35,154 nucleotides of DNA from a virus: IMG/VR virus record IMGVR_UViG_3300033407_000076, positions 1-35,154 of that record, one strand, 5' to 3'. The notes under the pieces are model-generated. The model saw only the letters and a program-made list of their open reading frames with translations, made no database searches and had not been told where the DNA came from. This document shows, piece by piece, positions 5,928 through 25,478 of this stretch; position 1 is the first letter of the stretch, and every line of letters begins with the position of its first letter. Position numbers and translations under genes: made by a program.

Positions 5928-6088
5928 ATACAACTCCATTTGCACTATTAACCCGCGTGTGGCGGTAACTTCCCTGTTTCAGTCAGGTGACTGCCCATTT
6001 TCCCGCATGGGTGCGTTATGCCCGCAAATGATTTGCGGTGGTAATACAAATATAATACAGCAGCAGGCGTGCATCAACAAAGATGCCA

Positions 6089-8245
6089 TTATTCTTTATT
6101 GGTGTTTTCATTTTTCATATTCATAACCCTGGCCAGCGTATGTAAACTTTCAACCGCTGTTCGGGCCTGCTCTGCATCAATCTCCGATTTCTTCATCATT
6201 TGTTCGACGTCAATATTTTGAAGGCGTGCCAAAAGCTCGGTAAGGTCCATGTCAATCTTTTGCTGATCCTGTTGTGCCTTCACCGCCTTAAACTGTGAAT
6301 CCTGCCTCATCTTCTCCAGATCCACTTCAGCAGATGTCGGGGATTGTGCCTCCTTCATCGCCTTCATAGCCTCGGCCGTTTCCTTGTCCGCAAGCGCCTT
6401 TGAGTGCTGCATTTGCATTTGCATCTGCATCTGCTGGATCTGCTGTTGCATTTGCTGCATCTGGGCCTGTCCTTCACTTTGCTTTTGCTCATACTTCAGG
6501 GCTTTGGCCTTCAGCTCATCTATCCCCCTGATATCAATATTATCGAGAAGGACGCTCAATCCTTCATCATTGATGAATTGCGCGAACCGTTCAGACGCCT
6601 GCATCAGGTTGACTATTGTTTTCAGTGCCAGTTCCTTCTGCATGGCAAAGTTGACACCCGTCTCAACCTTTACCTGCAGACTATTTGGGTCATAGTTCAT
6701 ATATATTGACCCTTCGCGGTTGATCAGCACATAGGACCGCTTCCCGCTCGGCTCAAGCACAGGCAACGACCGTGGGGTGCGGTAATACTTTGGGATCAGG
6801 TCCAGAATTATCTGTGCGACACGGTTAAGTCCCTTTATGTAGCCGACAATATATGGAACTGACGCATTGTTTGACTGTATCGCACCCATGGCTATGGCAG
6901 CACCAGATATCTCCTGCCTGTTCACACCCTGATTTGTGTCGTATGACCCCAGTATGACCTGTGTCATCTCATCAGACATGCGGAAAGCATTGGTTATCTC
7001 TGGCGGGATAGGCGCCCTCATAACCTCCCGGGGTGGGGGCAATGTCACTTCTGGCGCATCCTGGTCAAGAAAGTGTTTATACACCAGAGTATTCGGTACC
7101 TGTGGGTCAGTGTATGCCTTCTCGTAGCCTTCCGGGATGGATTCAAGAGCCACAATCCACTTGTGTTGGACAAGGTTCTCAAGCTCATTTGCCAGCGACT
7201 GTCCAGCAAAGTTTTTTAGTTCCTGTATGCCTTTGGCATGGTAAACATATGGGCGCGTCATCTGATATTGCATGTTACTTTCGTTGATCCACGCGCTGTT
7301 ACCGTCAACAAACACAAGCGGTAAATGTTTATAGCTGGTGGTTTTGTGATCAAGTATCTTGTTTTCACACAGCCGGTACCGCTCAATAGTCTCAATCGTG
7401 GTTTTACGCTCATTGATAACCTGTGGTGGCTGCTCAAGTATCCCCTGTTTTTCCCATTCAATAAGTTTTCGATCATACTCTTTTTTGACCATTGAATGGC
7501 CATTGGTCAACTTAACTATGGTTTCATTTTTCTTTGCCTTCTCGTAATAATCACACACAAGGATGATTTCCTCGCGCTCATCACGGTATGACCAACCAAA
7601 GCCAGCGATGTTCTTTGAATAGCTCATTGTTTCGGCCAGATCCTTGCCATGCTCTTCTTCAAAGCGTTTACGTGACATAGGAAATACCTGAAAACAGAAT
7701 GCACCATCGCCCTTGTGTGATTCCCGTGCCAGTGGGTCAAATCCGCAAAGCGTGGGGTCAAATACGCGGTCAACGTAAATGTTCTGTTCGAAACTCATTT
7801 CGTTGACATAATCGGTGTAAACCTCCATCACCGAAAATCCGCCGGCAAGCAGGTCTGAGTAAATGTTGTACTCGAGCTTGTCATTACTTGCATCAAAGAA
7901 TATGGCGCGAAGGTGCGCCTCCATGACATCAATGGTTTTGTTGAACTCTGGCGTCAGCATATTAATGGGAACGCCATCTGCGGCCCGTACAGTCAGTGAC
8001 GGTTGCTGTTTGGCAAACTCACCACGCAATCGGGATACAAAGGATTCCAGGATATTGTATTCAGATGTCGGCTTCCCCATGTCGCGCAGTATTTTGATAT
8101 CACGCTGCGAGAGAGAGGTCTTAAAAACGAATTTCACATAGTCGTGAAAGCGCTTATAGTTATCATTAAAATATGTATGCGCCTGCTCGATCCGTTCCTT
8201 GATCTGCTTCAAACGATCAGAGGAATCCTTCCCAGTCTCCGCCAT
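6089..8245 (-). CDS. Portal protein (718 aa) with long C-terminal Q/M-rich coiled coil
   Basis: Immediately downstream of terL, overlapping it by 29 nt. GGAGAG RBS precedes ATG 8245. Size and C-terminal helical extension recall the P22 portal barrel. Confidence 0.8.
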   Translation of the reverse strand: MAETGKDSSDRLKQIKERIEQAHTYFNDNYKRFHDYVKFVFKTSLSQRDIKILRDMGKPTSEYNILESFVSRLRGEFAKQQPSLTVRAADGVPINMLTPEFNKTIDVMEAHLRAIFFDASNDKLEYNIYSDLLAGGFSVMEVYTDYVNEMSFEQNIYVDRVFDPTLCGFDPLARESHKGDGAFCFQVFPMSRKRFEEEHGKDLAETMSYSKNIAGFGWSYRDEREEIILVCDYYEKAKKNETIVKLTNGHSMVKKEYDRKLIEWEKQGILEQPPQVINERKTTIETIERYRLCENKILDHKTTSYKHLPLVFVDGNSAWINESNMQYQMTRPYVYHAKGIQELKNFAGQSLANELENLVQHKWIVALESIPEGYEKAYTDPQVPNTLVYKHFLDQDAPEVTLPPPREVMRAPIPPEITNAFRMSDEMTQVILGSYDTNQGVNRQEISGAAIAMGAIQSNNASVPYIVGYIKGLNRVAQIILDLIPKYYRTPRSLPVLEPSGKRSYVLINREGSIYMNYDPNSLQVKVETGVNFAMQKELALKTIVNLMQASERFAQFINDEGLSVLLDNIDIRGIDELKAKALKYEQKQSEGQAQMQQMQQQIQQMQMQMQMQHSKALADKETAEAMKAMKEAQSPTSAEVDLEKMRQDSQFKAVKAQQDQQKIDMDLTELLARLQNIDVEQMMKKSEIDAEQARTAVESLHTLARVMNMKNENTNKE

Positions 8246-9770: not shown

Positions 9771-9809
9771 TAATTAATGCCATAATGTGTTTTGTATATG
9801 TTATCACAA

Positions 9810-10478
9810 ATGAAAAAAGAAACAATGTTTGATCAAATCTGGAAACCCATACTTGGTTATGAAAATTTATATGAAGCCTCAAATGATGGTCAAATAAGAT
9901 CATTCCACGACAAGAAAATCAAGAAACAATCGCTTTCCTCAAACAAAAAATATTTTAGAGTTACTGTTACCAAAAACAAAGTTTCCAAGCAAATTACAGT
10001 ACATAGGTTGATCGCATGGGCGTTTCTTGGCAAGCAAGAACATGGCGTCGAGGTAAGGCATATTAACGGAAATTCCCATGATAATTACATAAGCAATCTA
10101 AAATATGGCAGCAGATCAGACAACATGCAGGATGCAATTAGACAAAATACATTTTCGATGGGTGAAATACATCATTCTGCAAAATTAACCAAACAAGATG
10201 TCATTGAAATTTATTTAAATCCTGATGATTATCGAAAAATAGCATCTATGTATAATATTCATCCATTTACAGTTCATAAAATAAAAAGAAGAAAAATGAG
10301 GAAAATTGATACAGAACATATCAAGGACCTAAAACCAGTTTCATTGGATTACAGTAAAAAAGGTAATTTATCCAACAAACAAAAAGAAATCCTCAATAAC
10401 AATAAAATATCACAAAGAAAAGCAGCGAAGTTATTAAATGTCTCACAAAGGACTATCTGTATGTGGAGGAATCAATAA
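9810..10478 (+). CDS. HNH homing endonuclease (NUMOD4 + HNH_3 + C-terminal HTH)
   Basis: 'WKPILGYENLYEASNDGQIRS' (NUMOD4) and 'HRLIAWAFLG...VRHINGNSHDNYISNLKYGSRSDN' (HNH). Visibly AT-rich. Opposite strand to both flanking genes. Track ORF starts at TTG 9792. Confidence 0.85.
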   Translation: MKKETMFDQIWKPILGYENLYEASNDGQIRSFHDKKIKKQSLSSNKKYFRVTVTKNKVSKQITVHRLIAWAFLGKQEHGVEVRHINGNSHDNYISNLKYGSRSDNMQDAIRQNTFSMGEIHHSAKLTKQDVIEIYLNPDDYRKIASMYNIHPFTVHKIKRRKMRKIDTEHIKDLKPVSLDYSKKGNLSNKQKEILNNNKISQRKAAKLLNVSQRTICMWRNQ

Positions 10479-10837: not shown

Positions 10838-12131
10838 ATCCATCCTCCATGATGGCCTTTTTACCAGTGTACTGTTCCCATCTTGCTATGATAACTGAAA
10901 CATACTGTGGTGACAGTTCCATCATATGGCATTTGCGCCCAGTCTCCTCGCAAGCGATGAGCGTTGAGCCTGAGCCTCCAAAAACATCAATGATATTTTG
11001 ATTTTTTTCGCTGGAGTTTAATATGCATTCTTTTATTAACTCGACCGGCTTCATTGTTGGATGCAAGTCGTTTTTTAATGGCTTGTCTATTTCCCACACG
11101 GAAGTCTTGAACTGGCCTTTTCCATAAAATTTATGCGTTCCATTGGATTTCCAACCATACAAAATTGGTTCATGCTTATAGTTATAATCGCATCGACCCA
11201 ATACGTGATTATTCTTTACCCATATCAACATGTGCTTGAGCAAGAAACCAGCGTCACCAATAGCCATCATCATCATCAAGTCGCCACCTTGAGGAGAGAA
11301 AATATAATAAGATGATTTATTATCTAATATTGTATAAGCATTTAATAATACTTGCAGCCAGAATTCATTCATTTCTTTTGGCTTTTTCGAATCGTTCTCA
11401 ATAGCATTGGGACAGGCCATAGGCTTACCAATGCTATTGAGATATTTATTTTTTTCTGTGTACGAAACACCATATGGCGGATCAGTAACAAGCAAGTCAG
11501 CCTTATTTCCATCCATCAGCTTTTCAACGTCATCAATCATTGTGCTGTCGCCACACATCAGACGATGCTCGCCCAACAACCACACATCCCCCAGTTTTGT
11601 GATTGGCTCTGCTGGAGCGTCTGGCACATCATCAGGGCCGCACTGTCCAGCATCCAAAACCTCTAGCGTAAATGATGCAATCTCGTCAGGCTCAAATCCC
11701 GTCAGTGATATGTCAAAGCCGTTGTGTTCAAGCCTCTGGACTTCCTCAAGCAGGATTGTGTAGTTCCATCCAGCATCGAGCGCCAGCCTGTTGTCAGCGA
11801 TCACGTAGGCGGCTTTCTGGTCTTCAGTCAGGCCGTCCAGCACAATGCAAGGAACCTCATCAATGCCACACACCTTGGCTGCCTCAACCCTGCAATGTCC
11901 TGCAATGATGGTATTGTTCTCGTCCACCAATACGGGATTTGTAAACCCAAATTCATTGATGGAATTGATTACCTTTTGAACCTGCTCAGGCGAATGTGTA
12001 CGGGAATTGTTGGTGTATTGAGCAAGATTGGCTATTTTTTCCCTTTTATACTCCCGAAGGGAGTTTGTTTTTTTCGTCATATTTTTTTGCATCCTTGCTT
12101 TTCGTCTTTTCAATATCCTTTCCGGAAACAA
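10809..12131 (-). CDS. ParB-like nuclease domain fused to a DNA methyltransferase (N6A/N4C, beta class)
   Basis: N-terminal ParB-N-like 'FGFTNPVLVDENNTIIAGHCRVEAAK'. 'LLVTDPPYG' (motif IV) precedes 'DVFGGSGSTLIACE' (motif I). Start uncertain: TTG 12131, ATG 12092 or ATG 12080. Confidence 0.85.
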   Translation of the reverse strand: MFPERILKRRKARMQKNMTKKTNSLREYKREKIANLAQYTNNSRTHSPEQVQKVINSINEFGFTNPVLVDENNTIIAGHCRVEAAKVCGIDEVPCIVLDGLTEDQKAAYVIADNRLALDAGWNYTILLEEVQRLEHNGFDISLTGFEPDEIASFTLEVLDAGQCGPDDVPDAPAEPITKLGDVWLLGEHRLMCGDSTMIDDVEKLMDGNKADLLVTDPPYGVSYTEKNKYLNSIGKPMACPNAIENDSKKPKEMNEFWLQVLLNAYTILDNKSSYYIFSPQGGDLMMMMAIGDAGFLLKHMLIWVKNNHVLGRCDYNYKHEPILYGWKSNGTHKFYGKGQFKTSVWEIDKPLKNDLHPTMKPVELIKECILNSSEKNQNIIDVFGGSGSTLIACEETGRKCHMMELSPQYVSVIIARWEQYTGKKAIMEDGYGKGNRASA

Positions 12132-12267
12132 CCTTTGGAATTTCTATTTCACCCTTTCCCATGCACAGCGGACAGTCCATTTCCTTCCCGCCAGTATCAG
12201 TTCTTGACCATGCGGATCCAGTCTTGTACATCTTCTTTTGCCCGTTGCACCTGAAACACCGCTTCAT
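12046..12267 (-). CDS. Small DnaJ-type zinc-finger protein (CxxCxGxK ... CxxCxGxG)
   Basis: 'CFRCNGQK' and 'CPLCMGKG'. ATG 12267 overlaps the upstream TGA as TGATG. GAGG RBS present. Confidence 0.5.
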   Translation of the reverse strand: MKRCFRCNGQKKMYKTGSAWSRTDTGGKEMDCPLCMGKGEIEIPKVVSGKDIEKTKSKDAKKYDEKNKLPSGV

Positions 12268-12482
12268 CATTCACCTCTCGCATCCCTGATTTTAATAACA
12301 GTAACAATTACCATGATAAGCACTGTTTCAATGCCTGATGATGATATAAGCAACGTATGAATTTCATCCATGGACAGTTTTCCATCATCAAGACAGGCAA
12401 ACAGGGATGCCAAAAACTGAACTGTGCTGATAATTGTGGTTGTTCCGAGGATTTTGTTCAGATGTTTTTCGAGAAAATCCAT
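12267..12482 (-). CDS. Holin-like small membrane protein (71 aa, two hydrophobic segments)
   Basis: Directly downstream of the endolysin. Hydrophobic stretches 'ILGTTTIISTVQFLASLFACL' and 'GIETVLIMVIVTVI'. G-rich RBS before ATG 12482. Confidence 0.5.
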   Translation of the reverse strand: MDFLEKHLNKILGTTTIISTVQFLASLFACLDDGKLSMDEIHTLLISSSGIETVLIMVIVTVIKIRDARGE

Positions 12483-12496
12483 TTCTCCCCCCGCTT

Positions 12497-13051
12497 TCAG
12501 TAATAGGACCGATTGAGCCATCCTTTCAGATATTTTCTGAGCTTTGGATTCCGGTCTGCAATAATGCGATATTTGCCAGCCGCCTCGCTTTTGAGTGCTG
12601 CCAGGAGGATGGCTGGATTTGCTTTATTGATGGCATCAATACTTTTGTGCCCAATAACCCCATCGACAACAAGCTCCTTTGTTGATGCCGCGCGCACTGC
12701 ATTTTGTATACAGCAGTGGGCAGCATGAAACCCCATGTTTACGGACAGGCTAAACAGTTTTGTGGCGATACACTGGGCATGGATGCGCCCGTACCTGAAC
12801 CTGTCCCAGAACTGCCGTCGATAGATTGCAGCAGCATCCTCCTGTTTAAGGGAGCGTATGTCATCCGTGTCAACATGACCATCACCATTAAAGTCCACAT
12901 CCCTATGGTCTTGATTGGATTTGTCTGCCAAGCCGTGCAGGAATCTCAAAGATATCCCGTATTTCGTTGCCCCACCTGGATCGTCCGGATCAAGGGAGAT
13001 ACCACCTTCGTGGCTAAGGACAACGGGCATGGCAAGATCAAAAATGGCCAT
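12497..13051 (-). CDS. Endolysin, glycoside hydrolase family 108 type with C-terminal PG-binding-like region
   Basis: 'LSHEGGISLDPDDPGGATKYGIS' matches the GH108 N-terminal signature (EGG...DPGG.TKYGI). 'IYRRQFWD' follows. Confidence 0.85.
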   Translation of the reverse strand: MAIFDLAMPVVLSHEGGISLDPDDPGGATKYGISLRFLHGLADKSNQDHRDVDFNGDGHVDTDDIRSLKQEDAAAIYRRQFWDRFRYGRIHAQCIATKLFSLSVNMGFHAAHCCIQNAVRAASTKELVVDGVIGHKSIDAINKANPAILLAALKSEAAGKYRIIADRNPKLRKYLKGWLNRSYY

Positions 13052-13098
13052 CAAGCATCCTGCGAGTTACGCTCCTGGATAAAATATTACCACAACTT

Positions 13099-13142
13099 TT
13101 TGCAACTGCAATTTGCATCTTGCATATATTTGCAATTGCAAA
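13099..13142. promoter_or_regulatory. Array of TGCA-core repeats and palindromes in a divergent intergenic region (candidate operators)
   Basis: ttTTGCAAcTGCAAtTTGCAtcTTGCAtatatTTGCAATTGCAAa. Six TGCA cores at 6-10 nt spacing. 13129..13142 (tttgcaattgcaaa) is a perfect 14-bp palindrome. Confidence 0.5.
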
Positions 13143-13162
13143 AAAAATACCATTAATTGTTA

Positions 13163-13190
13163 TTGATATGATAATAATTAATGTTATAAT
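13163..13190 (+). promoter_or_regulatory. Sigma70-type promoter with extended -10 for the XhlA-like block
   Basis: TTGATA (13163..13168), 16-nt spacer, then TGtTATAAT (-10 at 13185..13190). Confidence 0.6.
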
Positions 13191-13209
13191 ATTGTCATAC
13201 ATTGGCCAA

Positions 13210-13434
13210 ATGAGCATAAAAAAACAAATGACTAGCAAACATATAGAACAAGTAATAACAAAATATGATCTATTGTTTGAGCAGCGATTAACACGTACAG
13301 AAACGCTGTGCGAGAAACTAGAACAAGATATGACAGAAATACGCGTTTCATACCGGTGGCTTATCGGCATTATGATTGGCGGATTTTCTGGCATGTTTGG
13401 GTTGATGGCCCATGGGTTCAAATGGTGGAGTTAA
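13210..13434 (+). CDS. XhlA-like small membrane protein, paralogue 1 (74 aa)
   Basis: N-terminal coiled coil plus a C-terminal TM segment, 'RWLIGIMIGGFSGMFGLMAHG'. Same architecture as the two ORFs that follow. Confidence 0.5.
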   Translation: MSIKKQMTSKHIEQVITKYDLLFEQRLTRTETLCEKLEQDMTEIRVSYRWLIGIMIGGFSGMFGLMAHGFKWWS

Positions 13435-16868: not shown

Positions 16869-17048
16869 ATGAACAGCGCTAATATAGCGCACGATGATGT
16901 GCGCACGCAACAATCAATAAAAGAACAGGAAGTTATATTTTTAAAGGACGGAACTATTTTTTGCCCAGTGTGTGAATGTTTTCACCAAAACCACACATGG
17001 TGTCAGGCAAATTTTGATATTGATTGCGGAGGGGAAGGAGCCCTATGA
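16869..17048 (+). CDS. Small Cys-rich protein (59 aa)
   Basis: AAGGA RBS. 'CPVCECFHQNHTWC'. Its stop overlaps the next start as ATGA. Confidence 0.4.
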   Translation: MNSANIAHDDVRTQQSIKEQEVIFLKDGTIFCPVCECFHQNHTWCQANFDIDCGGEGAL

Positions 17049-17482
17049 CCACGAATAAATCTATCCAGATAAACAATCTGATCAATGATCTGGTCAGCTG
17101 GTATGCCACATCCAGCAATACTGACCGTCAGTTAAAACTTTATGTATCCGATATTCCTGAACAGGATTTAAACAATCTTGCTGGCCTGATTATTTCTCAG
17201 GATGACGACTACGCAGCAGAGTCAACCGGATTTGATAATGATGATTTTCAGCGCTCAATGCTTCCGGCACTTATAACCGCTTTGCGTGGCAAGAAAAACG
17301 GGTACACCTCTGAAGAATTCCGAGACATATGGACAAGCGGGGTTCGCTCTTACCTCATGCCAGTTATGCAAAAAATGATCGATGAAGTTATTGACGATCT
17401 GAATGGAGAGCAGGGATGCCATATAAAACTTGTGTGGGACAGGAAAGCCGAAAAAACCATGGAAATAAGATCCAGTACATAA
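17045..17482 (+). CDS. Acidic early protein, 145 aa, function unknown
   Basis: GGAGGGGAAGGAG RBS before ATG 17045. D/E-rich stretches, e.g. 'SQDDDYAAESTGFDNDDF'. Confidence 0.6.
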   Translation: MTTNKSIQINNLINDLVSWYATSSNTDRQLKLYVSDIPEQDLNNLAGLIISQDDDYAAESTGFDNDDFQRSMLPALITALRGKKNGYTSEEFRDIWTSGVRSYLMPVMQKMIDEVIDDLNGEQGCHIKLVWDRKAEKTMEIRSST

Positions 17483-17534
17483 AGAACACAATAGGAGTGA
17501 TTTTACTTTTTGGATGGATCTTATACATGCTTTG

Positions 17535-17565
17535 GGTAATGACTGGATAATGACTGGATAATGAG
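17535..17565. repeat. 11-bp tandem direct repeat (TAATGACTGGA x ~2.7)
   Basis: ggTAATGACTGGATAATGACTGGATAATGAgg, in the intergenic gap just upstream of the ATPase gene. Confidence 0.85.
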
Positions 17566-17572
17566 GTAACAA

Positions 17573-18421
17573 ATGGCACTAAGAGGCGTAAAACCTGAAA
17601 AGATTGAAAAGAGACTGAAAGCCTTTTTCTATGGGGCGGCAGGCGTTGGCAAGACAACTGCTGCAATCAGTTTTCCAAAAGTATACTTGATTGACACAGA
17701 GCGTGGCGCAGAAAACGCACAATACTCCGAATTGATTTCAAAAGGCGGAGGCGTGGTATTCCAGACGTCAGATTTTGATGAAATGGTCAAAGAAATCCGG
17801 GCGCTACTTTCTGAAAAGCATGATTTCAAAACATTGGTCATCGACCCTCTTACAATCGTATATAACGACCTTCTTGATCAGTCCGCACTAAAGGTGGGGA
17901 CAGAGTTTGGGCGCCACTATGGCGAAGCAAACAAGAAAATGAAAACGCTCCTCAATCTTTTGCTTAGGCTGGACATGAACGTCATCATTACAAGCCACGC
18001 AAAGAATGAGTACAGCGAAGGGATGAAAGTTATTGGCCAAACCTTTGATTGCTACAAAAAGCTGGATTACCTTTTTGACCTTGTTTTTGAGGTTGTAAAA
18101 AGAGGCAATGAAATAAAAGCTCTTGTGCGCAAATCCCGTGTTGAAGGATTCAAAGAGAGCGAGTTATTCCCGTTTTGTTACGATGAAATAGCAAAACGCT
18201 ATGGACGAGAAATTATTGAGCGTGACGCTGTTGCGCAGGAGCTTGCAAGCGAAGAAGATGTCGAACGCGCCAAAAAGCTGATTGGACTACTAAAGACTCC
18301 GGAAGAAACTGTCCACAAATGGCTTGAGAAGGCACAATCGTCGGCGCTTGAGGAAATGCCAAAGGGCGCAATCACCAAATGTATTGATTATATGCAGAAG
18401 CAAATAGGGGAAACGCAATAA
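17573..18421 (+). CDS. Sak4-like / AAA_24 RecA-fold ATPase (recombination)
   Basis: Walker A 'FYGAAGVGKTT' followed by 'VYLIDTERG'. Size ~280 aa. Followed by a DUF669-like gene, the usual pairing. Confidence 0.75.
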   Translation: MALRGVKPEKIEKRLKAFFYGAAGVGKTTAAISFPKVYLIDTERGAENAQYSELISKGGGVVFQTSDFDEMVKEIRALLSEKHDFKTLVIDPLTIVYNDLLDQSALKVGTEFGRHYGEANKKMKTLLNLLLRLDMNVIITSHAKNEYSEGMKVIGQTFDCYKKLDYLFDLVFEVVKRGNEIKALVRKSRVEGFKESELFPFCYDEIAKRYGREIIERDAVAQELASEEDVERAKKLIGLLKTPEETVHKWLEKAQSSALEEMPKGAITKCIDYMQKQIGETQ

Positions 18422-18909
18422 TGGAAGATTTCGGATATAAACCAATGTCAGAAGATGAAGCAACAGCACACAGGTTTCAAATGCTTGAGCCAGGGATATA
18501 TGATGCAACGATAGAGTCATATGAGGGTAAAATGGCCAGCACTGGCAATCGAATGGTTGTATTTACAGTCAGGGTCTACGACAAAAACAGCCATCACCAC
18601 GACCTAAAAGACTACATGACGTTTACTGACTCGATGACATGGAAGCTACGCCACCACTGCATTGCGGCCGGCCTTGTATCAGAATTTGAGAGTGGGACCT
18701 GGCATCCCAAAATGTCAGTCGGCAAAAACTTACGCGTTAAAGTCGTCATCGATAAGGGTAAAGAAATACCTGTCAACAAACTAAACGGAAAGCCACCTGG
18801 TAGCACATATCATGATCGCAACATGATTGATGATTACATTTCAGATGGCTCGACAGTTGCGCAGGTAACTGAAATTGATAATAATTTTAATGACGAAATA
18901 CCATTTTAA
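18421..18909 (+). CDS. DUF669-like ssDNA-binding protein with SSB-type acidic C-terminal tip
   Basis: TAATG coupling to the ATPase gene. 'LEPGIYDATIESYEGKMASTGNRMVVFTVRV'. C-terminus '...NNFNDEIPF' resembles the bacterial SSB tip DDDIPF. Confidence 0.65.
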   Translation: MEDFGYKPMSEDEATAHRFQMLEPGIYDATIESYEGKMASTGNRMVVFTVRVYDKNSHHHDLKDYMTFTDSMTWKLRHHCIAAGLVSEFESGTWHPKMSVGKNLRVKVVIDKGKEIPVNKLNGKPPGSTYHDRNMIDDYISDGSTVAQVTEIDNNFNDEIPF

Positions 18910-18930
18910 CTGGTATCATAAAAATTTTGG

Positions 18931-19104
18931 ATGATGTCGATGGATACGATTATCGAAGCACTGGCGCTGCTGGATATGGCGTCCTCCGATATTTTGGCGG
19001 TCAAATCAAATGATGCTTTGGCAAAAATATATGTGGCTCAAAAGATATTAAGGGAAATATACAGTGACATTGAAAGCGAATTATGTAAAGAATGTGATCA
19101 ATGA
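18931..19104 (+). CDS. Hypothetical small protein (57 aa)
   Basis: ORF fills the gap. No clear RBS. Confidence 0.3.
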   Translation: MMSMDTIIEALALLDMASSDILAVKSNDALAKIYVAQKILREIYSDIESELCKECDQ

Positions 19105-19240
19105 TCTGGTAAAAAGAAAACAAAACTGTGATGTGGAAAAAATAAAGTGTCAGTCTCTTGCAGATGGTTATGACAGAGAATCAAAAGAACTTGAAAAAAT
19201 AATTGATATTCTTACACAGAAATTTTTAACTGAAAATTAA
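19064..19240 (+). CDS. Hypothetical small protein (58 aa, GTG start)
   Basis: AAGGGA lies 8 nt upstream of GTG 19064. Coiled-coil-like sequence. Overlaps the previous ORF by 41 nt. Confidence 0.3.
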   Translation: MTLKANYVKNVINDLVKRKQNCDVEKIKCQSLADGYDRESKELEKIIDILTQKFLTEN

Positions 19241-19254
19241 AAAGGGCAATGAGA

Positions 19255-19689
19255 ATGGCAAAACAAAAAAAACATGAATTAAATCTTGATGACTGGGTAG
19301 AGGTGAAAAAAAAAACGAGAATTTCAAAATCAGACCCACATAAAATACGTGTAGGGGTCACGAAACCAAATACGAAAACAAGTAAATCGTCTCATATGAT
19401 TATCCATATACATAATGAAATGATTGATAGGCTGAATCTTCCTGCAGACAAAAAAATAAATTTTTTATGTCATAAAGATAATCCATTAAGGATTTTATTG
19501 TTTAGATCACCAACAGGAAATAAACTTATAACTCCCAGAAACTCTTGTATGTCAAGAGTTGTTTTTTCAGTTAATCGTGATGTTTTCCCTATATCAGAAA
19601 ATATAATCAGCGTGGAACCTATTTTCCATGCCAAAAATAAAAACAGTTCTGCAATGCTGGAGCTGGATATCAGCGGTTTATATGAATAA
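19255..19689 (+). CDS. Hypothetical protein, ~144 aa, in a markedly AT-rich segment
   Basis: AAGGG RBS. Lys/Asn/Ile-rich. No motif recognised. Confidence 0.55.
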   Translation: MAKQKKHELNLDDWVEVKKKTRISKSDPHKIRVGVTKPNTKTSKSSHMIIHIHNEMIDRLNLPADKKINFLCHKDNPLRILLFRSPTGNKLITPRNSCMSRVVFSVNRDVFPISENIISVEPIFHAKNKNSSAMLELDISGLYE

Positions 19690-19908
19690 TAAAGGCGTAT
19701 ACTTTTCCGGTGACGGTAAGGGCGACTACAAGACAATAGGGCCACCATTTACGGCAGTCGCGGCGTTGACAGCGAAACGCAGGTAAGGTTATTAAGGGCT
19801 TGATAGGTTCCCCTGAAATAAATTAACCGCCGCCCTAAGCCTTCTCGGGCTAGCTTGTGCAATTCAGGCCGATTGCCAATTTTTAATTTATTGTGCTTAG
19901 GATAGAAA
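19690..19908 (+). other. 219-nt non-coding, comparatively GC-rich segment with several possible helices (candidate structured RNA or cis element)
   Basis: No credible ORF on either strand. Complementary pairs: GCGACT/AGTCGC (19722/19755), GCGTT/AACGC (19762/19775), GCGGCG/CGCCGC (19758/19828), AGCC..GGCT (19838/19848). Confidence 0.35.
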
Positions 19909-20214
19909 ATGAGTGAATGGATAAGCGTTAAAGAACATCTGCCTAAAATAAGCATATACGCACCTCCTGTGGTAGTTATTTATAACTCCATATGCCAACA
20001 TTGCCAAAATCCATCCACTGATGACAAATGTAAACTAGGGATTGCATGGCTTCTTGATATTGAAGAAGGCCTTCCAATGTGGGGATTAGTAGACCCTCAT
20101 TCCGATATTAATATATATGAAATAGATAAAATTGATGATGGTAATTCCAAAATTGAAATAAACGTAACGCATTGGATGCCAGTGCCGGATGCGCCAGAGG
20201 TGATATATGAGTGA
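19909..20214 (+). CDS. DUF551-domain protein (101 aa)
   Basis: 'WISVKEHLPK' ... 'VTHWMPVPDAPE', the typical DUF551 start and end motifs. Confidence 0.7.
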   Translation: MSEWISVKEHLPKISIYAPPVVVIYNSICQHCQNPSTDDKCKLGIAWLLDIEEGLPMWGLVDPHSDINIYEIDKIDDGNSKIEINVTHWMPVPDAPEVIYE

Positions 20215-20395
20215 CATTACAAAAAATTGCCCATTCTGCGGATCTTTTACGGGAATCATTATTCATGATGCAAGAAACAGATTTGAGTCATATCAGCCCG
20301 TCTGCATGAATGAAGAATGCAGAGCGCAGATGCCAGAATTTCATGACGCAAAACTGGCAGTTGAGGCGTGGAACAGGAGAGTGAGCGATAAGTGA
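20207..20395 (+). CDS. lar: Lar-family restriction alleviation protein (62 aa)
   Basis: 'CPFCGS' ... 'C..EECRAQ' ... 'AVEAWNRR', the same pattern as Rac Lar (CPFCG ... C..C ... A...WN.R). Confidence 0.7.
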   Translation: MSDITKNCPFCGSFTGIIIHDARNRFESYQPVCMNEECRAQMPEFHDAKLAVEAWNRRVSDK

Positions 20396-20414
20396 AATCA
20401 GATTTGCCGAAGGT

Positions 20415-20561
20415 ATGCTGGTGGGTTTAAAGCTGGCATTAAAAATATTTATGGATTCTGACGAGGATTGTGAGACACACGTTTTGAAGGGCGCAATTGC
20501 CGCGCAGGAAATGTTTATTGAAGAATTGAAAAAGAATATCAATGAGGTTAGCGGTGAGTGA
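20415..20561 (+). CDS. Hypothetical small protein (48 aa); open frame continues past an in-frame TGA to 20699
   Basis: ATG 20415. See the finding on the in-frame TGA. Confidence 0.3.
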   Translation: MLVGLKLALKIFMDSDEDCETHVLKGAIAAQEMFIEELKKNINEVSGE

Positions 20562-20695
20562 CATTCCAATGACAGACAAAGACTATTGGATTATTACGAA
20601 AAATACAAAAAATATCAGGCCGGTGTTATTAATCATACTTTGAGTCTTGAGGATTTATTACGATTGATCTACTTGATCCGTGGGGATGGTGAGCG

Positions 20696-20833
20696 ATGAA
20701 TGACAATTTAGTGGGCTGTATGTTGGTTGCAGGGATAATGTTTATTATCATGACGGGAATTGTATGCGGGACAGTTTATAATCTTGCGACATATAAAATT
20801 GATCAGGCTGTTTCAACCGCCCATAAAGGTTAG
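20696..20833 (+). CDS. Small membrane protein (45 aa)
   Basis: ATGA overlap with the upstream frame. 'GCMLVAGIMFIIMTGIVCGTV' is a TM segment. Confidence 0.45.
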   Translation: MNDNLVGCMLVAGIMFIIMTGIVCGTVYNLATYKIDQAVSTAHKG

Positions 20834-20835
20834 CA

Positions 20836-21021
20836 GTGAGTGACTTCTGCGAGATTCCATTTTGTTCTAGCAAGAACTGTGGGATAAAAGATAAGCACCG
20901 TCATTTTGAGGATGGAATGATCCAGTTTGTATGGGTCAGTCCAGATATACGGCCTGAGTCAGGTAAAATAAAGATCACGTCATTTAATGTACAAATTTCA
21001 GATGATGAGCAAAAACCCTGA
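20836..21021 (+). CDS. Hypothetical protein (61 aa, GTG start)
   Basis: Track ORF. Starts 3 nt after the previous stop. Confidence 0.4.
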   Translation: MSDFCEIPFCSSKNCGIKDKHRHFEDGMIQFVWVSPDIRPESGKIKITSFNVQISDDEQKP

Positions 21022-21154
21022 AAAATCGCTGATTTTATTTGACCACTCTTAGGCGTGATAGTGAAACCTATCAGTCTTTTTTCACCGGGACCACCCCAAA
21101 TCCCGAAAGGGGATGAAATTTTACAGTGATAACTGAGAATGTAAAGAGGAAAAA

Positions 21155-21460
21155 ATGACAATAGTAATCCATGAAATGAACGAGCAAGACCTTCAAGATT
21201 TGATGGTCGAACATGAATTAGGCGCTAACGTATTAGATTTTAGGGATGCTGATGCACTGTGGGATTTTCGTTATCATGCGGCGGAAGGAATGGTCAGATT
21301 TGGCGGTTCTTTTATGAGTGCTTTGGGTCATGCGTTAATGCACTCTGACTTAAAAAATACCATAAAAATAATGACACAATGGAAATATGAATGTCTTGAA
21401 CATGCAGAATTGCATCGAAAATTTATAAAACAACGTGATAAACCACGAATGGACGATTGA
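21155..21460 (+). CDS. Hypothetical protein (101 aa)
   Basis: AGAGGA RBS. 'GGSFMSALGHALMHSDLKN' resembles a recurrent small phage protein motif (GG.F...L..A...AD..N) of unknown function. Confidence 0.55.
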   Translation: MTIVIHEMNEQDLQDLMVEHELGANVLDFRDADALWDFRYHAAEGMVRFGGSFMSALGHALMHSDLKNTIKIMTQWKYECLEHAELHRKFIKQRDKPRMDD

Positions 21461-21463
21461 CGG

Positions 21464-21637
21464 ATGATACAAGAAATAAAACTATCAGACGTTTCCTTGC
21501 TTTTGGGAATGTGTGTCGGGCTTTTAGGAAGTGCTTTGCAGATTATTCCAGAATCAGATGACAAAAAAGAAATCAAAGAAAAATTTGATGAAATTCAACA
21601 AATGATAAATAAAATATACTATCAGGATTACAAATGA
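21464..21637 (+). CDS. Small membrane protein (57 aa)
   Basis: 'LLLGMCVGLLGSALQII' is a TM segment. Its stop overlaps the next ATG as ATGA. Confidence 0.4.
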   Translation: MIQEIKLSDVSLLLGMCVGLLGSALQIIPESDDKKEIKEKFDEIQQMINKIYYQDYK

Positions 21638-22002
21638 CAGAATGCCCCCGCTGCGGCAAGCAAAACCCTGCTGAATTGCACACATGCACACCAGAATTTC
21701 ATCGGCAATCATATTTGATTGGCTTTGCAGATGGCGCTGAAAAACTTACGCATTGGATCAAGTGCAGTGATAGGCTGCCGGACACTGAGGAGTATGTTTT
21801 GACGTACTGCGACAACGGTTATCCGAAGATTATTAAAGATGCGCTGTCGCAAACCTCAAAGCAATGGCTTGTGGCTTCGTCGACTAGACAGCCATCACAC
21901 TGGATGCCATTACCATCCCCGCCTGTTTACCGTGTTAGTGACTCCTCAAAAAATGGCATGGATCCATACGCTGGCACAATTAAAAATGTGCCAAATAAAT
22001 GA
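21634..22002 (+). CDS. Zn-ribbon + DUF551-domain protein (122 aa), second DUF551 paralogue
   Basis: 'CPRCG...HTC' followed by 'WIKCSDRLPD' ... 'SHWMPLPSPP'. Confidence 0.65.
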   Translation: MTECPRCGKQNPAELHTCTPEFHRQSYLIGFADGAEKLTHWIKCSDRLPDTEEYVLTYCDNGYPKIIKDALSQTSKQWLVASSTRQPSHWMPLPSPPVYRVSDSSKNGMDPYAGTIKNVPNK

Positions 22003-22022
22003 TACAATGCGCTGTAACAACA

Positions 22023-22064
22023 CCCGCTACGCATCTTAACAATGCGAACCAGAGCGGGTTTTTT
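22023..22064 (+). terminator. Intrinsic terminator (compound hairpin + T6)
   Basis: CCCGCT (22023..22028) pairs with AGCGGG (22053..22058). An inner CGCAT/ATGCG helix lies between them. TTTTTT follows at 22059..22064. Confidence 0.55.
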
Positions 22065-22080
22065 AATTGAGATATGCAAA

Positions 22081-22269
22081 ATGAACCCTTTTGAAAACAA
22101 ACATCTTGTTGATTTAATAACAAAATCCATGACAATTGAGAGAAAATTAAAACAGGGGGGCTTGTGTGGCGATGATATAATGGTGCTGCTTAATGAAAAA
22201 CATGAAGCGGATCAAAAGGCTATGGCGCTTTTTTTAAAGCTCTATACTGAACATAAAAAAAACATATAA
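22081..22269 (+). CDS. Hypothetical protein (62 aa)
   Basis: Track ORF 22042..22269, trimmed to ATG 22081 because the terminator hairpin occupies 22023..22064. Confidence 0.4.
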   Translation: MNPFENKHLVDLITKSMTIERKLKQGGLCGDDIMVLLNEKHEADQKAMALFLKLYTEHKKNI

Positions 22270-22408
22270 AAATGGAGCAGCCCGAGTCTTAAATTTTTAG
22301 GAAGCAGTGACGTTTCATGCCTGCAATATTAAGTATCTCGGACTGCACGCTAAAGGATATCATCGAATAATACTGAATGCAAAAACAGACAAAATATAAT
22401 TTAAAAAA

Positions 22409-22603
22409 TCAGGAATTCTGTTGGAGAGAATTTTTCCTTTCTGGCAATGGATGTCGATGATCTTCTTGACAAGAAACCTGTAAATTACTGAAAAACACGT
22501 TCCGGTTTGGATTGGGCAATGTTTTTGCTATTCTCTCTGAATATGGAACAACAAATCCATCACAATCAGAAATTAAAAATAATCCAATTTTTTTGTTTTT
22601 CAT
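22409..22603 (-). CDS. Small ORF (64 aa), last gene of the secreted-protein operon
   Basis: ATG 22603 overlaps the upstream TGA as ATGA. 'MKNKKIGLFLISDC...' has a hydrophobic N-terminus. Confidence 0.35.
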   Translation of the reverse strand: MKNKKIGLFLISDCDGFVVPYSERIAKTLPNPNRNVFFSNLQVSCQEDHRHPLPERKNSLQQNS

Positions 22604-23109
22604 CGCGCGGTAATTATTCCGGATCCAGTATTGTCTGTCATTTCCCCGTCCATTTCTGTATGTGTTGTCGCCAATGTCGGTATCTGCCCGCGAACATTTG
22701 GCCTTATCCACATTTGAAGATATTTTGTTATGCAAAGTCCCTGTCCGCCGCCAACAGTAATAACTCCATAGTTTTTAACCTGCTGACCCACTATCTCCAG
22801 CATTACAGAATACTTTCCAGCAACTGTGGCCACATATGCGTTGTAAAAACAGGCTTTATGTTGGCTAATCGCAACATCCCATTCTCCTGTCCTCATATTC
22901 CGACTCGGTGCTATCGCTGACCCACTCATTGAACTCGTCATCACTGCCTTGAAGGAATTTTTTTTTTCATCATCAGACAGATTCCATGTTTCTATATTTG
23001 TCCTTACTACACCGCCTTTTGTTCCTTGACTGACATAGGTCGTGTCGTTTGCATTGGCGCCGGATGCAATAAAAAAAGCTGCCAGCAATGGCACTGTTTT
23101 TTTAATCAT
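22600..23109 (-). CDS. Secreted protein, paralogue B (169 aa), unknown family
   Basis: Signal peptide 'MIKKTVPLLAAFFIASGANA|ND'. Shares motifs with 23112..23618. Confidence 0.65.
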   Translation of the reverse strand: MIKKTVPLLAAFFIASGANANDTTYVSQGTKGGVVRTNIETWNLSDDEKKNSFKAVMTSSMSGSAIAPSRNMRTGEWDVAISQHKACFYNAYVATVAGKYSVMLEIVGQQVKNYGVITVGGGQGLCITKYLQMWIRPNVRGQIPTLATTHTEMDGEMTDNTGSGIITAR

Positions 23110-23111
23110 TT

Positions 23112-23618
23112 TTAGCTCACTGTAATGATTGCATTTGAGCGTGACATCTTTGTACCGGCCATCTGCGTACTGCCCGATGTGGATGCTGAGTACATATAAT
23201 TGCCCGCAGACGGAAAAGATACTTGCATATAGGTTCCATGGCTAATACATGTACGCTTGTGTGCCGGGATAACGATATGTTCAGAGATTTTTGTCTGCTT
23301 CCCCCCAACATCAAGAACCATCATGTAATTAGCCTCAGTGGTGAACCATGTATCAAAACAGACTAAATGATGACCACGCGCCATAACCGGGGAATTTACG
23401 CTAGCATGAACGTTGTCTGCATAGGCTATTACATCGGCTGTGGCTGTTGCTCTAACGCCATGAAATGGGTTGTTTGGCAGATCATAGGTTTCAATGTGGG
23501 TCGAGGTTATTCCGCCCTGCATTCCGGGAGGAACAACAACAATAGGGGCGGAAATTGCCGGACATGCGACAGCGACACCTGCGACAATCTGCATAAAATT
23601 TAAACTATATTTATTCAT
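23112..23618 (-). CDS. Secreted or membrane-anchored protein, paralogue A (168 aa), unknown family
   Basis: Hydrophobic N-terminus 'FMQIVAGVAVACPAISAP'. Shares GG[IV]..T.IET..L, H..CF, two Cys and IIT-x-x C-terminus with 22600..23109. Confidence 0.65.
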   Translation of the reverse strand: MNKYSLNFMQIVAGVAVACPAISAPIVVVPPGMQGGITSTHIETYDLPNNPFHGVRATATADVIAYADNVHASVNSPVMARGHHLVCFDTWFTTEANYMMVLDVGGKQTKISEHIVIPAHKRTCISHGTYMQVSFPSAGNYMYSASTSGSTQMAGTKMSRSNAIITVS

Positions 23619-23620
23619 AT

Positions 23621-23776
23621 TTAGCCCTTTAGGTCAGTTGATTCATAGACCGAATGGCTGACACCACCAATGACGCCCGGAGTTGTCGTTACAGTTGCCC
23701 CAAATAGCTGATTTGGACATGTTGTTTTGCATGCAGTCAGAACAATCAGACACATCCCTACGATAATATTTCGCAC
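23621..23776 (-). CDS. Small lipoprotein (51 aa)
   Basis: GGAGGG lies 7 nt upstream of GTG 23776. 'MRNIIVGMCLIVLTAC|KTTC...' has the lipobox L-T-A-C. Stop lies 2 nt before the next ATG. Confidence 0.55.
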   Translation of the reverse strand: MRNIIVGMCLIVLTACKTTCPNQLFGATVTTTPGVIGGVSHSVYESTDLKG

Positions 23777-23830
23777 AATAGTGCCCTCCAAAAAACTGGA
23801 AGGTACTATATTTTTTATAAGAAAACTACA

Positions 23831-23858
23831 TTGACATCAAATCAATCATCCGTATAAT
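23831..23858 (+). promoter_or_regulatory. Near-consensus sigma70 promoter
   Basis: TTGACA (23831..23836), 16-nt spacer, TATAAT (23853..23858). Confidence 0.7.
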
Positions 23859-23887
23859 GCGCACTTTCGTTAACAAAGTCAGACAAA

Positions 23888-24112
23888 ATTATACTGAACA
23901 CACATTATTGGAAAAAAAGCAATCAAAGATACTATTCAGCGTATCTTAGCAAAGACCTTCTGGGGTGGTGGGTCGTCGAATGCGCATGGGGTGGTATCAA
24001 CTCAAAACTCGGTAACAAAAAAAAATATGCTTTTGAAAAAAAAATTGAAGCATCGCAATTTATTGATCAAATAATGAAAAAGCGTAAAAAAAGAGGGTAT
24101 TGTTTGACGTAA
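23888..24112 (+). CDS. WGR-domain protein (~74 aa) with no canonical start codon (ATT 23888 / ATA 23891 / CTG 23894 are candidates)
   Basis: 'IILNTHYWKKSNQRYYSAYLSKDLLGWWVVECAWGGINSKLGNKKKYAFEKKIEASQFIDQIMKKRKKRGY' follows the small bacterial WGR pattern (..RYY.l.i...LFG.w.l...WGRIG..G......f....eA......K.krGY). Frame is open from 23858 with no ATG/GTG/TTG. Confidence 0.55.
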   Translation: MILNTHYWKKSNQRYYSAYLSKDLLGWWVVECAWGGINSKLGNKKKYAFEKKIEASQFIDQIMKKRKKRGYCLT

Positions 24113-24114
24113 AA

Positions 24115-24134
24115 AAGGCCGCCGTAGCGGCCTT
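24115..24134. terminator. Bidirectional intrinsic terminator between convergent genes
   Basis: AAGGCCGC-cgta-GCGGCCTT: perfect 8-bp stem, flanked by A6 upstream and a T-rich tract downstream. Confidence 0.75.
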
Positions 24135-24146
24135 ATCTTAGTTTTA

Positions 24147-25478
24147 TCAGGCAATTGTCTGTGAAAATCTCAGCATGATTCCGTACCAGCTATAGTCACT
24201 GGTGGCAGCAGCATCAACCGTTACCTCAATTATGTATTTGCTATCTGCTGTTACGTCAAAAGCCGGACTGTCAACGGCCACATTGGTCAGGTATGGGTTG
24301 GCCTGCGTTGCGGTAGCAAGTGCACCAGTAATTGCGATGCTGTTTACAGATACCGCTGCATTGTCCGCATACTCAATCCGATCCAACGTTACTGAATGCG
24401 CCTCAAGTGCCAGAGTTGTTATCTGGTAAATAACATCAAAACTGTCCAGCCGGAAGCCCTTGGATGCTGCAGCGCGGATCATGGGCGAAATATCAATACC
24501 AATGACGGTAGTATCATCCCCTTGTGTTTTTACCTGCGCATAATTTCCTTGAGCAACGCGTGTGCGCGTCCATGTTCCTGAGGAATAGTTCAGTACATGC
24601 TGAAGTCCGACAAACTCCTGATGCGCAATGATGTTTGCCGCGCCCGTATCAAGCAGGAAGTTTGCTGTGGCTGCGCCGGAGTCAGGAATAGTAATAACCT
24701 GGTCCTGTCCAACAGATGCAGCATTACTGACTGTCGTATCAAAATCAGCTCCAGCATTAACAGCCAAAAACCTGAAATTTCCGTTGGCAGTCGTAGCAGG
24801 ATATAGTGTCAGTGATCCAGCTGTTCCGCCTGCTGCAAGTCCAGCCAATAATGAACCGCCATCGACCTGCAATCCACCTGATGTTATATGCTGTGTGCCG
24901 GCGCTGTCAGAAATGATGAATTCAGCAGTTGCCTGTCCGCCATCCGGAATGGAAATGACTGTAGCCTGGCCATGAGCTGCGTTTGATACAGTTACAGATG
25001 TATTGCCGGTATTGGCAATAGCTTTCAGGATCAGACTGCCTTTTGCAGCAGTAGTCGGGTACAGATTGAGGATTCCTTCCGTACCGCTTGCGCCAAGGGT
25101 CAGATCACCTAGGTTTGTCACATCAGCGGCAGCGCCTGAAAGCGTGCCAGTGGTGTTGGTGAAATGAGCAAGACGATTTGCAACGGTTGGCAACACAACG
25201 TCACCAGGGGATGCAGGTGGGACCAAAGACCATGCACCGGATGAATATGACACCTCGTACCAGCCGCACTCATTGGCAGCAGACGCGGATTCCTTGGTCA
25301 CAACAAGCGCCATGTCCCGCTCATCGAGGACAATGAGGCCCTTGTTGACGGCATTGGTGAGGTAACCAGCTGTGGTCACTGCTGCCACAGTATCATTGGT
25401 TTCAATGCGGATAATGCGGGGATAGATCCCAGACTGGCCGGGTTCATTCAACTGAATATTGAGGATCGCCATTTTCAA
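24147..25478 (-). CDS. Fibre/receptor-binding-like structural protein (443 aa) with internal tandem repeats
   Basis: Last gene of the late operon. Repeats 'LYPTTAAKGSLILKAIANTGNTSVTVSNAAHGQATVISIPDGGQATAEFII' and 'LYPATTANGNFRFLAVNAGADFDTTVSNAASVGQDQVITIPDSGAATANFLL'. Confidence 0.55.
   Translation of the reverse strand: MKMAILNIQLNEPGQSGIYPRIIRIETNDTVAAVTTAGYLTNAVNKGLIVLDERDMALVVTKESASAANECGWYEVSYSSGAWSLVPPASPGDVVLPTVANRLAHFTNTTGTLSGAAADVTNLGDLTLGASGTEGILNLYPTTAAKGSLILKAIANTGNTSVTVSNAAHGQATVISIPDGGQATAEFIISDSAGTQHITSGGLQVDGGSLLAGLAAGGTAGSLTLYPATTANGNFRFLAVNAGADFDTTVSNAASVGQDQVITIPDSGAATANFLLDTGAANIIAHQEFVGLQHVLNYSSGTWTRTRVAQGNYAQVKTQGDDTTVIGIDISPMIRAAASKGFRLDSFDVIYQITTLALEAHSVTLDRIEYADNAAVSVNSIAITGALATATQANPYLTNVAVDSPAFDVTADSKYIIEVTVDAAATSDYSWYGIMLRFSQTIA

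Follow-up and report, generated by a model that had tools for sequence, protein, structure and literature searches.

The stretch of viral DNA analysed here, positions 1 to 35,154 of the IMG/VR virus record IMGVR_UViG_3300033407_000076 (35,154 nucleotides (nt); hereafter the window), is a whole or near-whole phage genome of about 35 kb. On its minus strand it carries three closely packed genes, here called Lpp, A and B, which are predicted from their sequences to form a phage-borne envelope module whose three products all leave the cytoplasm. An initial annotation had described this region as a coupled four-gene operon encoding an envelope-directed accessory module of unrecognised family, the fourth member being an open reading frame (ORF) of 64 amino acids (aa) downstream of B. 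The envelope-directed character and the unrecognised family were both supported, and no library matched the proteins, while the conserved unit proved to consist of three genes and the 64-aa ORF to be without counterpart elsewhere. The features of the locus are as follows.

23621..23776, minus strand: Lpp, the first gene of the triad; GTG start, predicted prolipoprotein of 51 aa
23630..23695, minus strand: hairpin segment of Lpp (T28-L49), with P33, G34, G37, G38, S40, Y44 and T47 invariant in the alignment
23112..23618, minus strand: A, predicted secreted paralogue of 168 aa
22600..23109, minus strand: B, predicted secreted paralogue of 169 aa, the best conserved of the three
22409..22603, minus strand: 64-aa ORF, whose start overlaps the stop codon of B (ATGA, 22603-22600)
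23784..23789, minus strand: Shine-Dalgarno sequence GGAGGG, read directly from the DNA, 7 nt upstream of the Lpp GTG
24115..24134: bidirectional terminator that separates the triad from the last late gene (stop at 24147); hairpin of 8 base pairs, 6 of which are GC, T-run on the minus strand

The three genes are joined by 2-nt gaps (TAA-nn-ATG, at 23623-23616 and 23114-23107). These gaps, the ORF coordinates, the GGAGGG site, the ATGA overlap, the lipobox and the terminator were all located where the initial annotation had placed them.

Lpp, A and B as related envelope proteins

The Lpp precursor comprises a 15-aa leader, a lipobox (L-T-A-C, cleaved as LTA/C16 with the Cys at residue 16) followed by Lys at +2, a short linker, and the C-terminal motif TTPGxxGGVSxSxYExT.L. 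This build recurs in 13 distinct loci, namely the window, L001, L003-L012 and L014, all of them metagenomic phage loci with enough flanking DNA. In these loci mature Lpp consists of the Cys, a Pro/Gln-rich linker of 10-35 residues and then the sequence [VY]-[TS]-[TS]-P-G-x-x-G-G-[VI]-S-x-[ST]-x-Y-x-x-T-x-L. A lipobox of the form L/M-x-[AGS]-C lies at residues 15-18 in 13/13, and 10/13 pass the PROSITE-style lipoprotein rule, which was used as a heuristic. The residues at +2 are K, K, V, V, Q, Q, H, Q, Q, Q, Q, V and T, and never D. Lpp is predicted to be a lipoprotein of the outer-membrane (OM) type.

The C-terminal motif of Lpp also opens the mature parts of A and B, and profile alignment matched Lpp to the leader and hairpin of A (hhalign 95.7%, E 1.1e-8) and to those of B (90.8%, E 1.2e-6). 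Judged by these alignments and the common motif, Lpp is a third, truncated paralogue of A and B that consists of a lipid anchor, a linker and only the N-terminal β-hairpin of about 20 residues. This kinship of the Lpp hairpin with A and B was a point missing from the initial annotation.

That A and B are paralogues of each other, as the initial annotation had claimed, was borne out by BLASTP (E=2e-7, 25% identity over 153 aa), by a His, two Cys and several Gly residues that are invariant across 10 A/B sequences, and by identical topology in the structural models. A has a signal peptide, a hairpin (P25-L47, nt 23478-23546), a low-confidence linker, and a core containing H84-x-x-C87-F and C124. 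B is organised in the same order, with a signal peptide cut at ANA/N21, a hairpin (T23-L44, nt 22978-23043), a linker, and a core containing H84-x-x-C87-F-Y-N and C126.

Export signals were judged by a heuristic on 66 sequences (13 Lpp, 13 A and 40 B). A positively charged n-region was found in 13/13 Lpp, 13/13 A and 39/40 B sequences, the exception being the B homologue P0036, and a hydrophobic core with a Kyte-Doolittle (KD) value >2 was present in 66/66. In addition, every sequence shows a lipobox or else an AxA-type site immediately ahead of the conserved start of the mature protein. The signal-like segments noticed earlier in A and B are thus supported by this heuristic, except that a simple cleavage site for A of the window did not hold up. 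The signal peptide of this protein (residues 1-24, 23546-23618 on the minus strand) is atypical, as its obvious AxA site, ISA/P, is followed by Pro at +1, a residue that signal peptidase I does not tolerate there. Alternatives are cleavage at CPA/ISA, or lipidation at the lipobox-like AVA/C19, which passes the PROSITE-style rule. The A homologues of other loci have clean xHA/E sites and no Cys at this place.

Structure prediction of A and B alone, followed by Foldseek searches, had been proposed in the initial annotation; it gave confident all-β models, with generic immunoglobulin (Ig)-like folds as the only neighbours. The AlphaFold2 (AF2) model of A has ten strands and a predicted local distance difference test score (pLDDT) of 93.6, that of B has the same topology and a pLDDT of 92.9, and the predicted TM-scores (pTM) are 0.84-0.85. 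The hairpin is formed by strands 2-4/3-6 and 11-22/12-23 of the mature proteins, with pLDDT >90. Directly after it, in both A and B, comes the least confident block of the model (pLDDT 64-74), and then a core of eight strands. In the models, full-length A and B therefore read as hairpin-hinge-core, and Lpp as lipid-linker-hairpin. The two invariant Cys residues lie on non-adjacent strands, as would fit a periplasmic cross-sheet disulfide, and from this invariant pair we infer that A and B probably carry such a bond.

With regard to fold, each protein is an all-β sandwich of about 145 aa, of the kind seen in generic secreted Ig-like domains. Foldseek against the PDB returned only generic Ig-like neighbours, many of them at TM-scores of 0.4-0.53 and none >0.53, and a search of BFVD gave nothing better. 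Pilins are among these neighbours: AggA is the top match for B (E 2.4e-5, TM 0.45), pilins rank 4 for A, and CfaE, CooA and CfaB score TM 0.30-0.38. CARDB, RbmA, complement MG and integrin domains score like the pilins. A small OM β-barrel of the Lom/Ail/OmpX type was considered and rejected, since no barrel appears in the 50 best PDB neighbours, the C-terminal residues are R, S, N or K and give no aromatic β-signal, and the Cys pair is on non-adjacent strands.

None of the proteins has a family match in Pfam, PHROGs, NCBIfam, PADLOC or the PDB sequences, and 44 family members compared with Pfam at E up to 1 gave no match either. The single PHROG 'lipoprotein' match to Lpp (E 0.15) covers the leader only. 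As far as sequence searches can tell, the family is undescribed and confined to uncultured phages.

Conservation and placement of the triad

The order small lipoprotein, A, B is kept in 13/13 independent loci, and in none of those outside the window was a counterpart of the 64-aa ORF present. Of the four-gene block that the initial annotation had suggested looking for in related phages, three genes were thus found throughout and the fourth nowhere else. The first searches had yielded one homologue for A and three for B, and a later profile search gave 44 clusters, nearly all of B-type; the B homologue clusters number about 40, all unnamed and metagenomic. An exhaustive hidden Markov model (HMM) search of 1.84 billion protein representatives gave 36 matches. 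Three proteins from this search (P0057, P0074 and P0078) are giant, T/S/V-rich Ig-repeat proteins and were set aside, their matches being taken as compositional or generic. None of 185,579 species genomes scanned revealed a family member, so this offered no prophage or host clue. Neither the region nor B nor P0013 had a match in GenBank phages or PLSDB plasmids by nucleotide search and tblastn.

A homologue of A (P0002) is 48% identical to it, and A occurs in 12 other loci. The B proteins of other loci are 40-53% identical to B of the window, and the other members are more alike among themselves. For the closer pairs, dN/dS values (Nei-Gojobori) were 0.12-0.29 for Lpp, 0.10-0.20 for A and 0.07-0.26 for B. 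Purifying selection acts on all three genes. Lpp and A overlap by ATGA in L004, L005, L009, L010, L011/L013/L015 and L014, and the members of the triad stay together despite unrelated small cytoplasmic genes that have become wedged between them in some loci:

L001, 1810-2073: KfrA_N-like gene
L004, 5725-5916: gene for 63 aa
L006, 8814-9161 and 9645-10004: genes for 115 and 119 aa, paralogues of each other, flanking A
L007, 9049-9198 and 9690-10004: genes for 49 and 104 aa

KfrA_N is the only Pfam family found among these inserted genes.

The surroundings of the triad are of an early or accessory type in most loci. In L003, L007, L008 and L011 the Sak4-like and DUF669 genes precede it and point the same way, and in L004 and L006 it has small early genes around it, with ArdA and DUF3310 close by. 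In these long loci it is co-oriented with Sak4-like, DUF669 and ArdA genes, and across the loci its neighbourhood includes Sak4-like, DUF669, ArdA, Lar and DUF551 genes. An inverted triad by the end of the late operon was seen in the window only. The initial annotation had called this the classic moron position; for the window the description is apt, as the inverted triad converges with the early block and comes directly after the late-operon terminator, but it does not extend to the other long loci, which carry the triad in the early/accessory operon. Because the inversion is limited to the window, the moron position is a local accident and not a property of the module.

The window and these phages have early genes in common (Sak4 58-67% identical, DUF669 48-55%). 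The structural modules can differ: the portal of L006 is a Head-tail_con (T7-type) connector accompanied by a Phage_capsid_2 capsid, and that of the window is P22-like (phrog_156).

More distant relatives bear on how the proteins are tethered. Among distant members of full length, P0064, P0065, P0069 and P0081 themselves satisfy the lipoprotein rule. L018/L019 is a phage of 46 kb that encodes DNA polymerase A; in its early region (6001-7046) lie two neighbouring, distantly related paralogues of 183 and 165 aa, the first of which has its own lipoprotein-type leader and hairpin. L018 carries P0065, and no separate small Lpp is present there. Tethering by a lipid thus seems to be a trait of the family, which can be provided either in cis or in trans.

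The surrounding genome

The 64-aa ORF downstream of B is probably not a gene, or else one private to this phage, and by sequence comparison it is outside the conserved module. It had no homologue in any other locus by tblastn, it was not called as a gene on the twin contig L002, which is 100% identical, a heuristic check revealed no signal peptide, and Pfam, PHROGs, NCBIfam and PADLOC gave no family match. The ATGA overlap at 22603-22600 is real and speaks for a coupled four-gene operon with this ORF as a member, but in view of the foregoing we regard such an operon as decidedly improbable.

Two further signals were noted near the triad. A perfect σ70 consensus (TTGACA, 16 nt, TATAAT; 12/12) is situated at 23831-23858 on the plus strand, in the gap between the triad and the late operon, and faces the bidirectional terminator, with the triad behind it. 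The RNA expected from this promoter (about 23865-24134, about 270 nt) folds better than 200/200 shuffles (z = -2.93), has no ORF of ≥30 aa from its start and no Rfam family match, and may be a small or antisense RNA. In addition, a terminator-like hairpin with a T-run lies at 23080-23093, inside the part of B that encodes the signal peptide; this is probably a chance occurrence, since 4 such sites were found against 3.1 expected.

Other genes of the window are as follows:

Late genes, minus strand: terminase, portal, scaffold, major head, head closure and tail fibres
About 17000-22270, plus strand: early genes, including a Sak4-like AAA_24 protein, a DUF669 protein and DUF551 proteins
12046-13421, minus strand: lysis cassette, with a GH108 + PG_binding_3 endolysin (12497-13054) and an 84-aa protein with two transmembrane domains (12267-12521)

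No Rz/Rz1 pair or unimolecular spanin could be recognised in the lysis cassette, and a lipobox scan of the whole window gave no other plausible candidate.

With regard to the host, no DNA-level relatives of the genome were found among GenBank phages. Its portal and terminase reach at most 35% identity with their counterparts in cultured Xylella, Pseudomonas, Vibrio, Escherichia and Klebsiella phages, and the relatives of portal, terminase and methyltransferase, all ≤47% identical, are scattered over many hosts and single out none. No tRNA genes were found in the window. Based on the phage relatives, the Shine-Dalgarno sites, the lipobox and the GH108 endolysin, the host is probably a Gram-negative bacterium, and probably a gammaproteobacterium.

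Two observations concern the late region. A homing-endonuclease gene (NUMOD4 + HNH_3, 9792-10478, plus strand) lies on the opposite strand in an island of 34% GC adjoining the large terminase gene. The last late protein (24147-25478, minus strand, 443 aa) has an internal tandem repeat of about 50 aa, LYP.TTA.G...TVSNAA.GQ..VI.IPD.G.ATA.F, and its N-terminal 190 aa or so are in common with proteins of 358-367 aa in L003, L006 and L007.

Proposed function and relation to known systems

Small phage lipoproteins that act at the OM offer a starting point for interpreting the triad. Llp of T5 excludes superinfection from the periplasmic side by acting on FhuA (PMC9586334) and, according to a preprint, is made shortly after infection (bioRxiv 10.64898/2026.03.26.714494). 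Rtp45 acts on LptDE and forms a β-sheet between its residues 30-35 and residues 318-323 of LptD (PMC12685063). By comparison, the hairpin common to Lpp, A and B could serve as an exchangeable docking element. Through β-sheet augmentation or swapping, the Lpp hairpin would bind in trans, its partner being the hairpin site of A and/or B or else a target in the host that all three recognise, and the outcome would be a periplasmic Lpp-A-B assembly tethered to the OM. Such an assembly would be made early in infection, as the location of the genes in the early/accessory operon of most loci suggests. It might then alter the envelope on its periplasmic side and stop phages that arrive later from completing entry, which would amount to superinfection exclusion or to inactivation of a receptor or entry path, and the same change would also keep progeny from adsorbing to debris. 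Exclusion of the Cor/Llp type and receptor masking, both put forward in the initial annotation, are plausible roles in this respect.

Taken as a whole, the exclusion complex is a tentative proposal that falls somewhat short of being probable. Its more general parts, envelope targeting and a three-part assembly, are considerably more likely than the whole, and the specific exchange of hairpins in trans is doubtful. Several points weigh against the proposal. No homology that would speak for exclusion was found with PADLOC, PHROGs, Pfam or NCBIfam. The monomer models (pLDDT >90 for the hairpin) show cis packing of this element and not an exchange in trans. No σ70-like promoter was found upstream of Lpp in the window. 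The Lol +2 rule may not apply to Lpp in the host of this phage. Finally, the conservation of B extends over phages whose structural modules differ, and this favours a conserved target in the host over a receptor-specific lock of the Llp kind.

The last point is also what would be expected if A and B were periplasmic inhibitors, or immunity proteins, directed at an envelope-acting enzyme or toxin, with Lpp holding one copy at the OM. Candidate targets are the tail lysozyme of an incoming phage (as for T4 Spackle), a host periplasmic nuclease or protease, tailocins and colicins. A and B are suited to such a task in being small, secreted and predicted disulfide-bonded β proteins with an invariant His-x-x-Cys, and the early/accessory placement of the triad agrees with it. 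In the MliC/PliC lysozyme inhibitors a lipid-anchored protein is likewise accompanied by a soluble paralogue. However, there is no MliC, PliC, Ivy, Spackle or other known inhibitor in the top 50 Foldseek matches and no sequence-family match, and an Lpp reduced to a hairpin is left unexplained, so we find an inhibitor set unlikely.

A and B might instead polymerise in a pilin-like manner by N-terminal hairpin donation, with Lpp as the membrane anchor, giving a periplasmic or surface fibre that changes adhesion or receptor availability (host conversion). The chaperone-usher pilins AggA (E 2.4e-5), CfaE, CooA and CfaB are among the best PDB neighbours, a low-confidence hinge follows the N-terminal hairpin, and Lpp resembles an anchor with the same hairpin; lipoprotein anchors are a feature of type V pili. 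Yet the pilin TM-scores are only 0.33-0.45, and non-pilin Ig-like domains match equally well, which points to a generic sandwich. Moreover, no locus contains a chaperone, usher or protease gene, no Fimbrial match was obtained with Pfam, and no route across the OM is evident, all of which makes a fibre or adhesin quite unlikely. A conventional pilus operon was rejected on similar grounds, as there is no chaperone or usher gene in any locus and no Fimbrial, PapD or Usher match in Pfam. In a related scheme the triad would be a self-contained strand-complementation machine, in which Lpp donates its hairpin in trans to the Ig-like subunits and thereby frees their own hairpins for the next subunit, so that an ordered, OM-tethered periplasmic assembly could form without chaperone or usher; we hold this to be improbable. 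A TonB-box-like interpretation of the first strand of the hairpin was considered as well and set aside. Lowest of all we rate a non-canonical accessory for OM disruption or lysis, with Lpp as an o-spanin-like OM lipoprotein that A and B connect at lysis with the wall or the inner membrane. In favour of this, Lpp resembles Rz1 in being small and Pro/Gln-rich. A lysis role is very unlikely, and the small probability we reserve for it is due to the failure to recognise any spanin elsewhere in the window. The signal peptides of A and B are cleavable, both proteins are all-β and lack a membrane anchor and a coiled coil, the triad never adjoins the endolysin gene and is in the early region in L003, L004, L006 and L007, and the PHROG spanin families are unmatched. 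A genuine spanin pair was dismissed for these reasons too, A and B having AxA-type cleavage sites and no later hydrophobic segment, and also because of location, since the endolysin cassette is about 10 kb away and the triad is apart from the GH108 endolysin gene in other loci as well. Homology to virion or lysis proteins, which would have spoken against the initial annotation, was not detected, and the lysis cassette is elsewhere (12046-13421).

Phage proteins acting in the host periplasm are few and mostly single small lipoproteins, and the triad is a conserved and selected three-part set without a described relative. Its unusual trait is that the lipoprotein is a cut-down paralogue showing only the hairpin that its two partners also have. 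If this hairpin docks in trans, the triad would be a novel and highly compact means of tethering and assembling proteins on the inner side of the OM, and would also imply a conserved envelope target of the host that is worth hitting early for several podophage lineages. The strand-complementation machine would, if real, constitute an undescribed class of phage device for envelope remodelling or superinfection exclusion. As the proteins are small, confidently modelled and synthesisable, these ideas are directly testable.

As a broad category, phage lipoprotein-based envelope modules are already known; for the architecture of one truncated-paralogue lipoprotein and two secreted paralogues, no counterpart was found. 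Two-component spanins such as lambda Rz/Rz1 resemble the triad in combining a small Pro-rich OM lipoprotein with one or more larger periplasmic partners encoded alongside. The triad differs in that A and B are soluble all-β proteins and not membrane-anchored coiled coils, and in that the genes are outside the lysis cassette and neither embedded nor overlapped in the manner of Rz/Rz1. With chaperone-usher pilins (AggA, CfaB/CfaE, CooA), A and B have in common a size of about 150 aa, a secreted Ig-like β-sandwich, a disulfide (probable in A and B) and an N-terminal strand element. In contrast to the pilins, the N-terminal element of A and B comprises two strands in a hairpin, modelled as packing in cis, the TM-scores are ≤0.45, and chaperone, usher and a Pfam Fimbrial match are all missing. 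The proteins of the T4 Spackle/Imm and P1 Sim type are secreted by phages and act in the periplasm on incoming phage; they have no homology to A and B, differ in fold, and have neither a lipoprotein partner nor a pair of paralogues.

The genes llp and cor lie by tail genes, and the triad of the window, just past the last late (tail-side) gene, is similarly placed. In the other loci this likeness fails, as the triad is in the early region there and not by receptor-binding genes. T5 Llp, Rtp45 and Cor (phi80/T1/N15) are nevertheless like Lpp in being small phage lipoproteins aimed at the inner leaflet of the OM and acting from the periplasmic side, as we propose for Lpp, and the β-sheet pairing of Rtp45 with its target (PMC12685063) can be likened to the docking proposed for the Lpp hairpin. 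There is no sequence or profile similarity between them and Lpp. Moreover, Llp, Cor and Rtp45 are single genes whose products fold alone, whereas Lpp is made up of a linker and a hairpin and has A and B alongside it in 13/13 loci.

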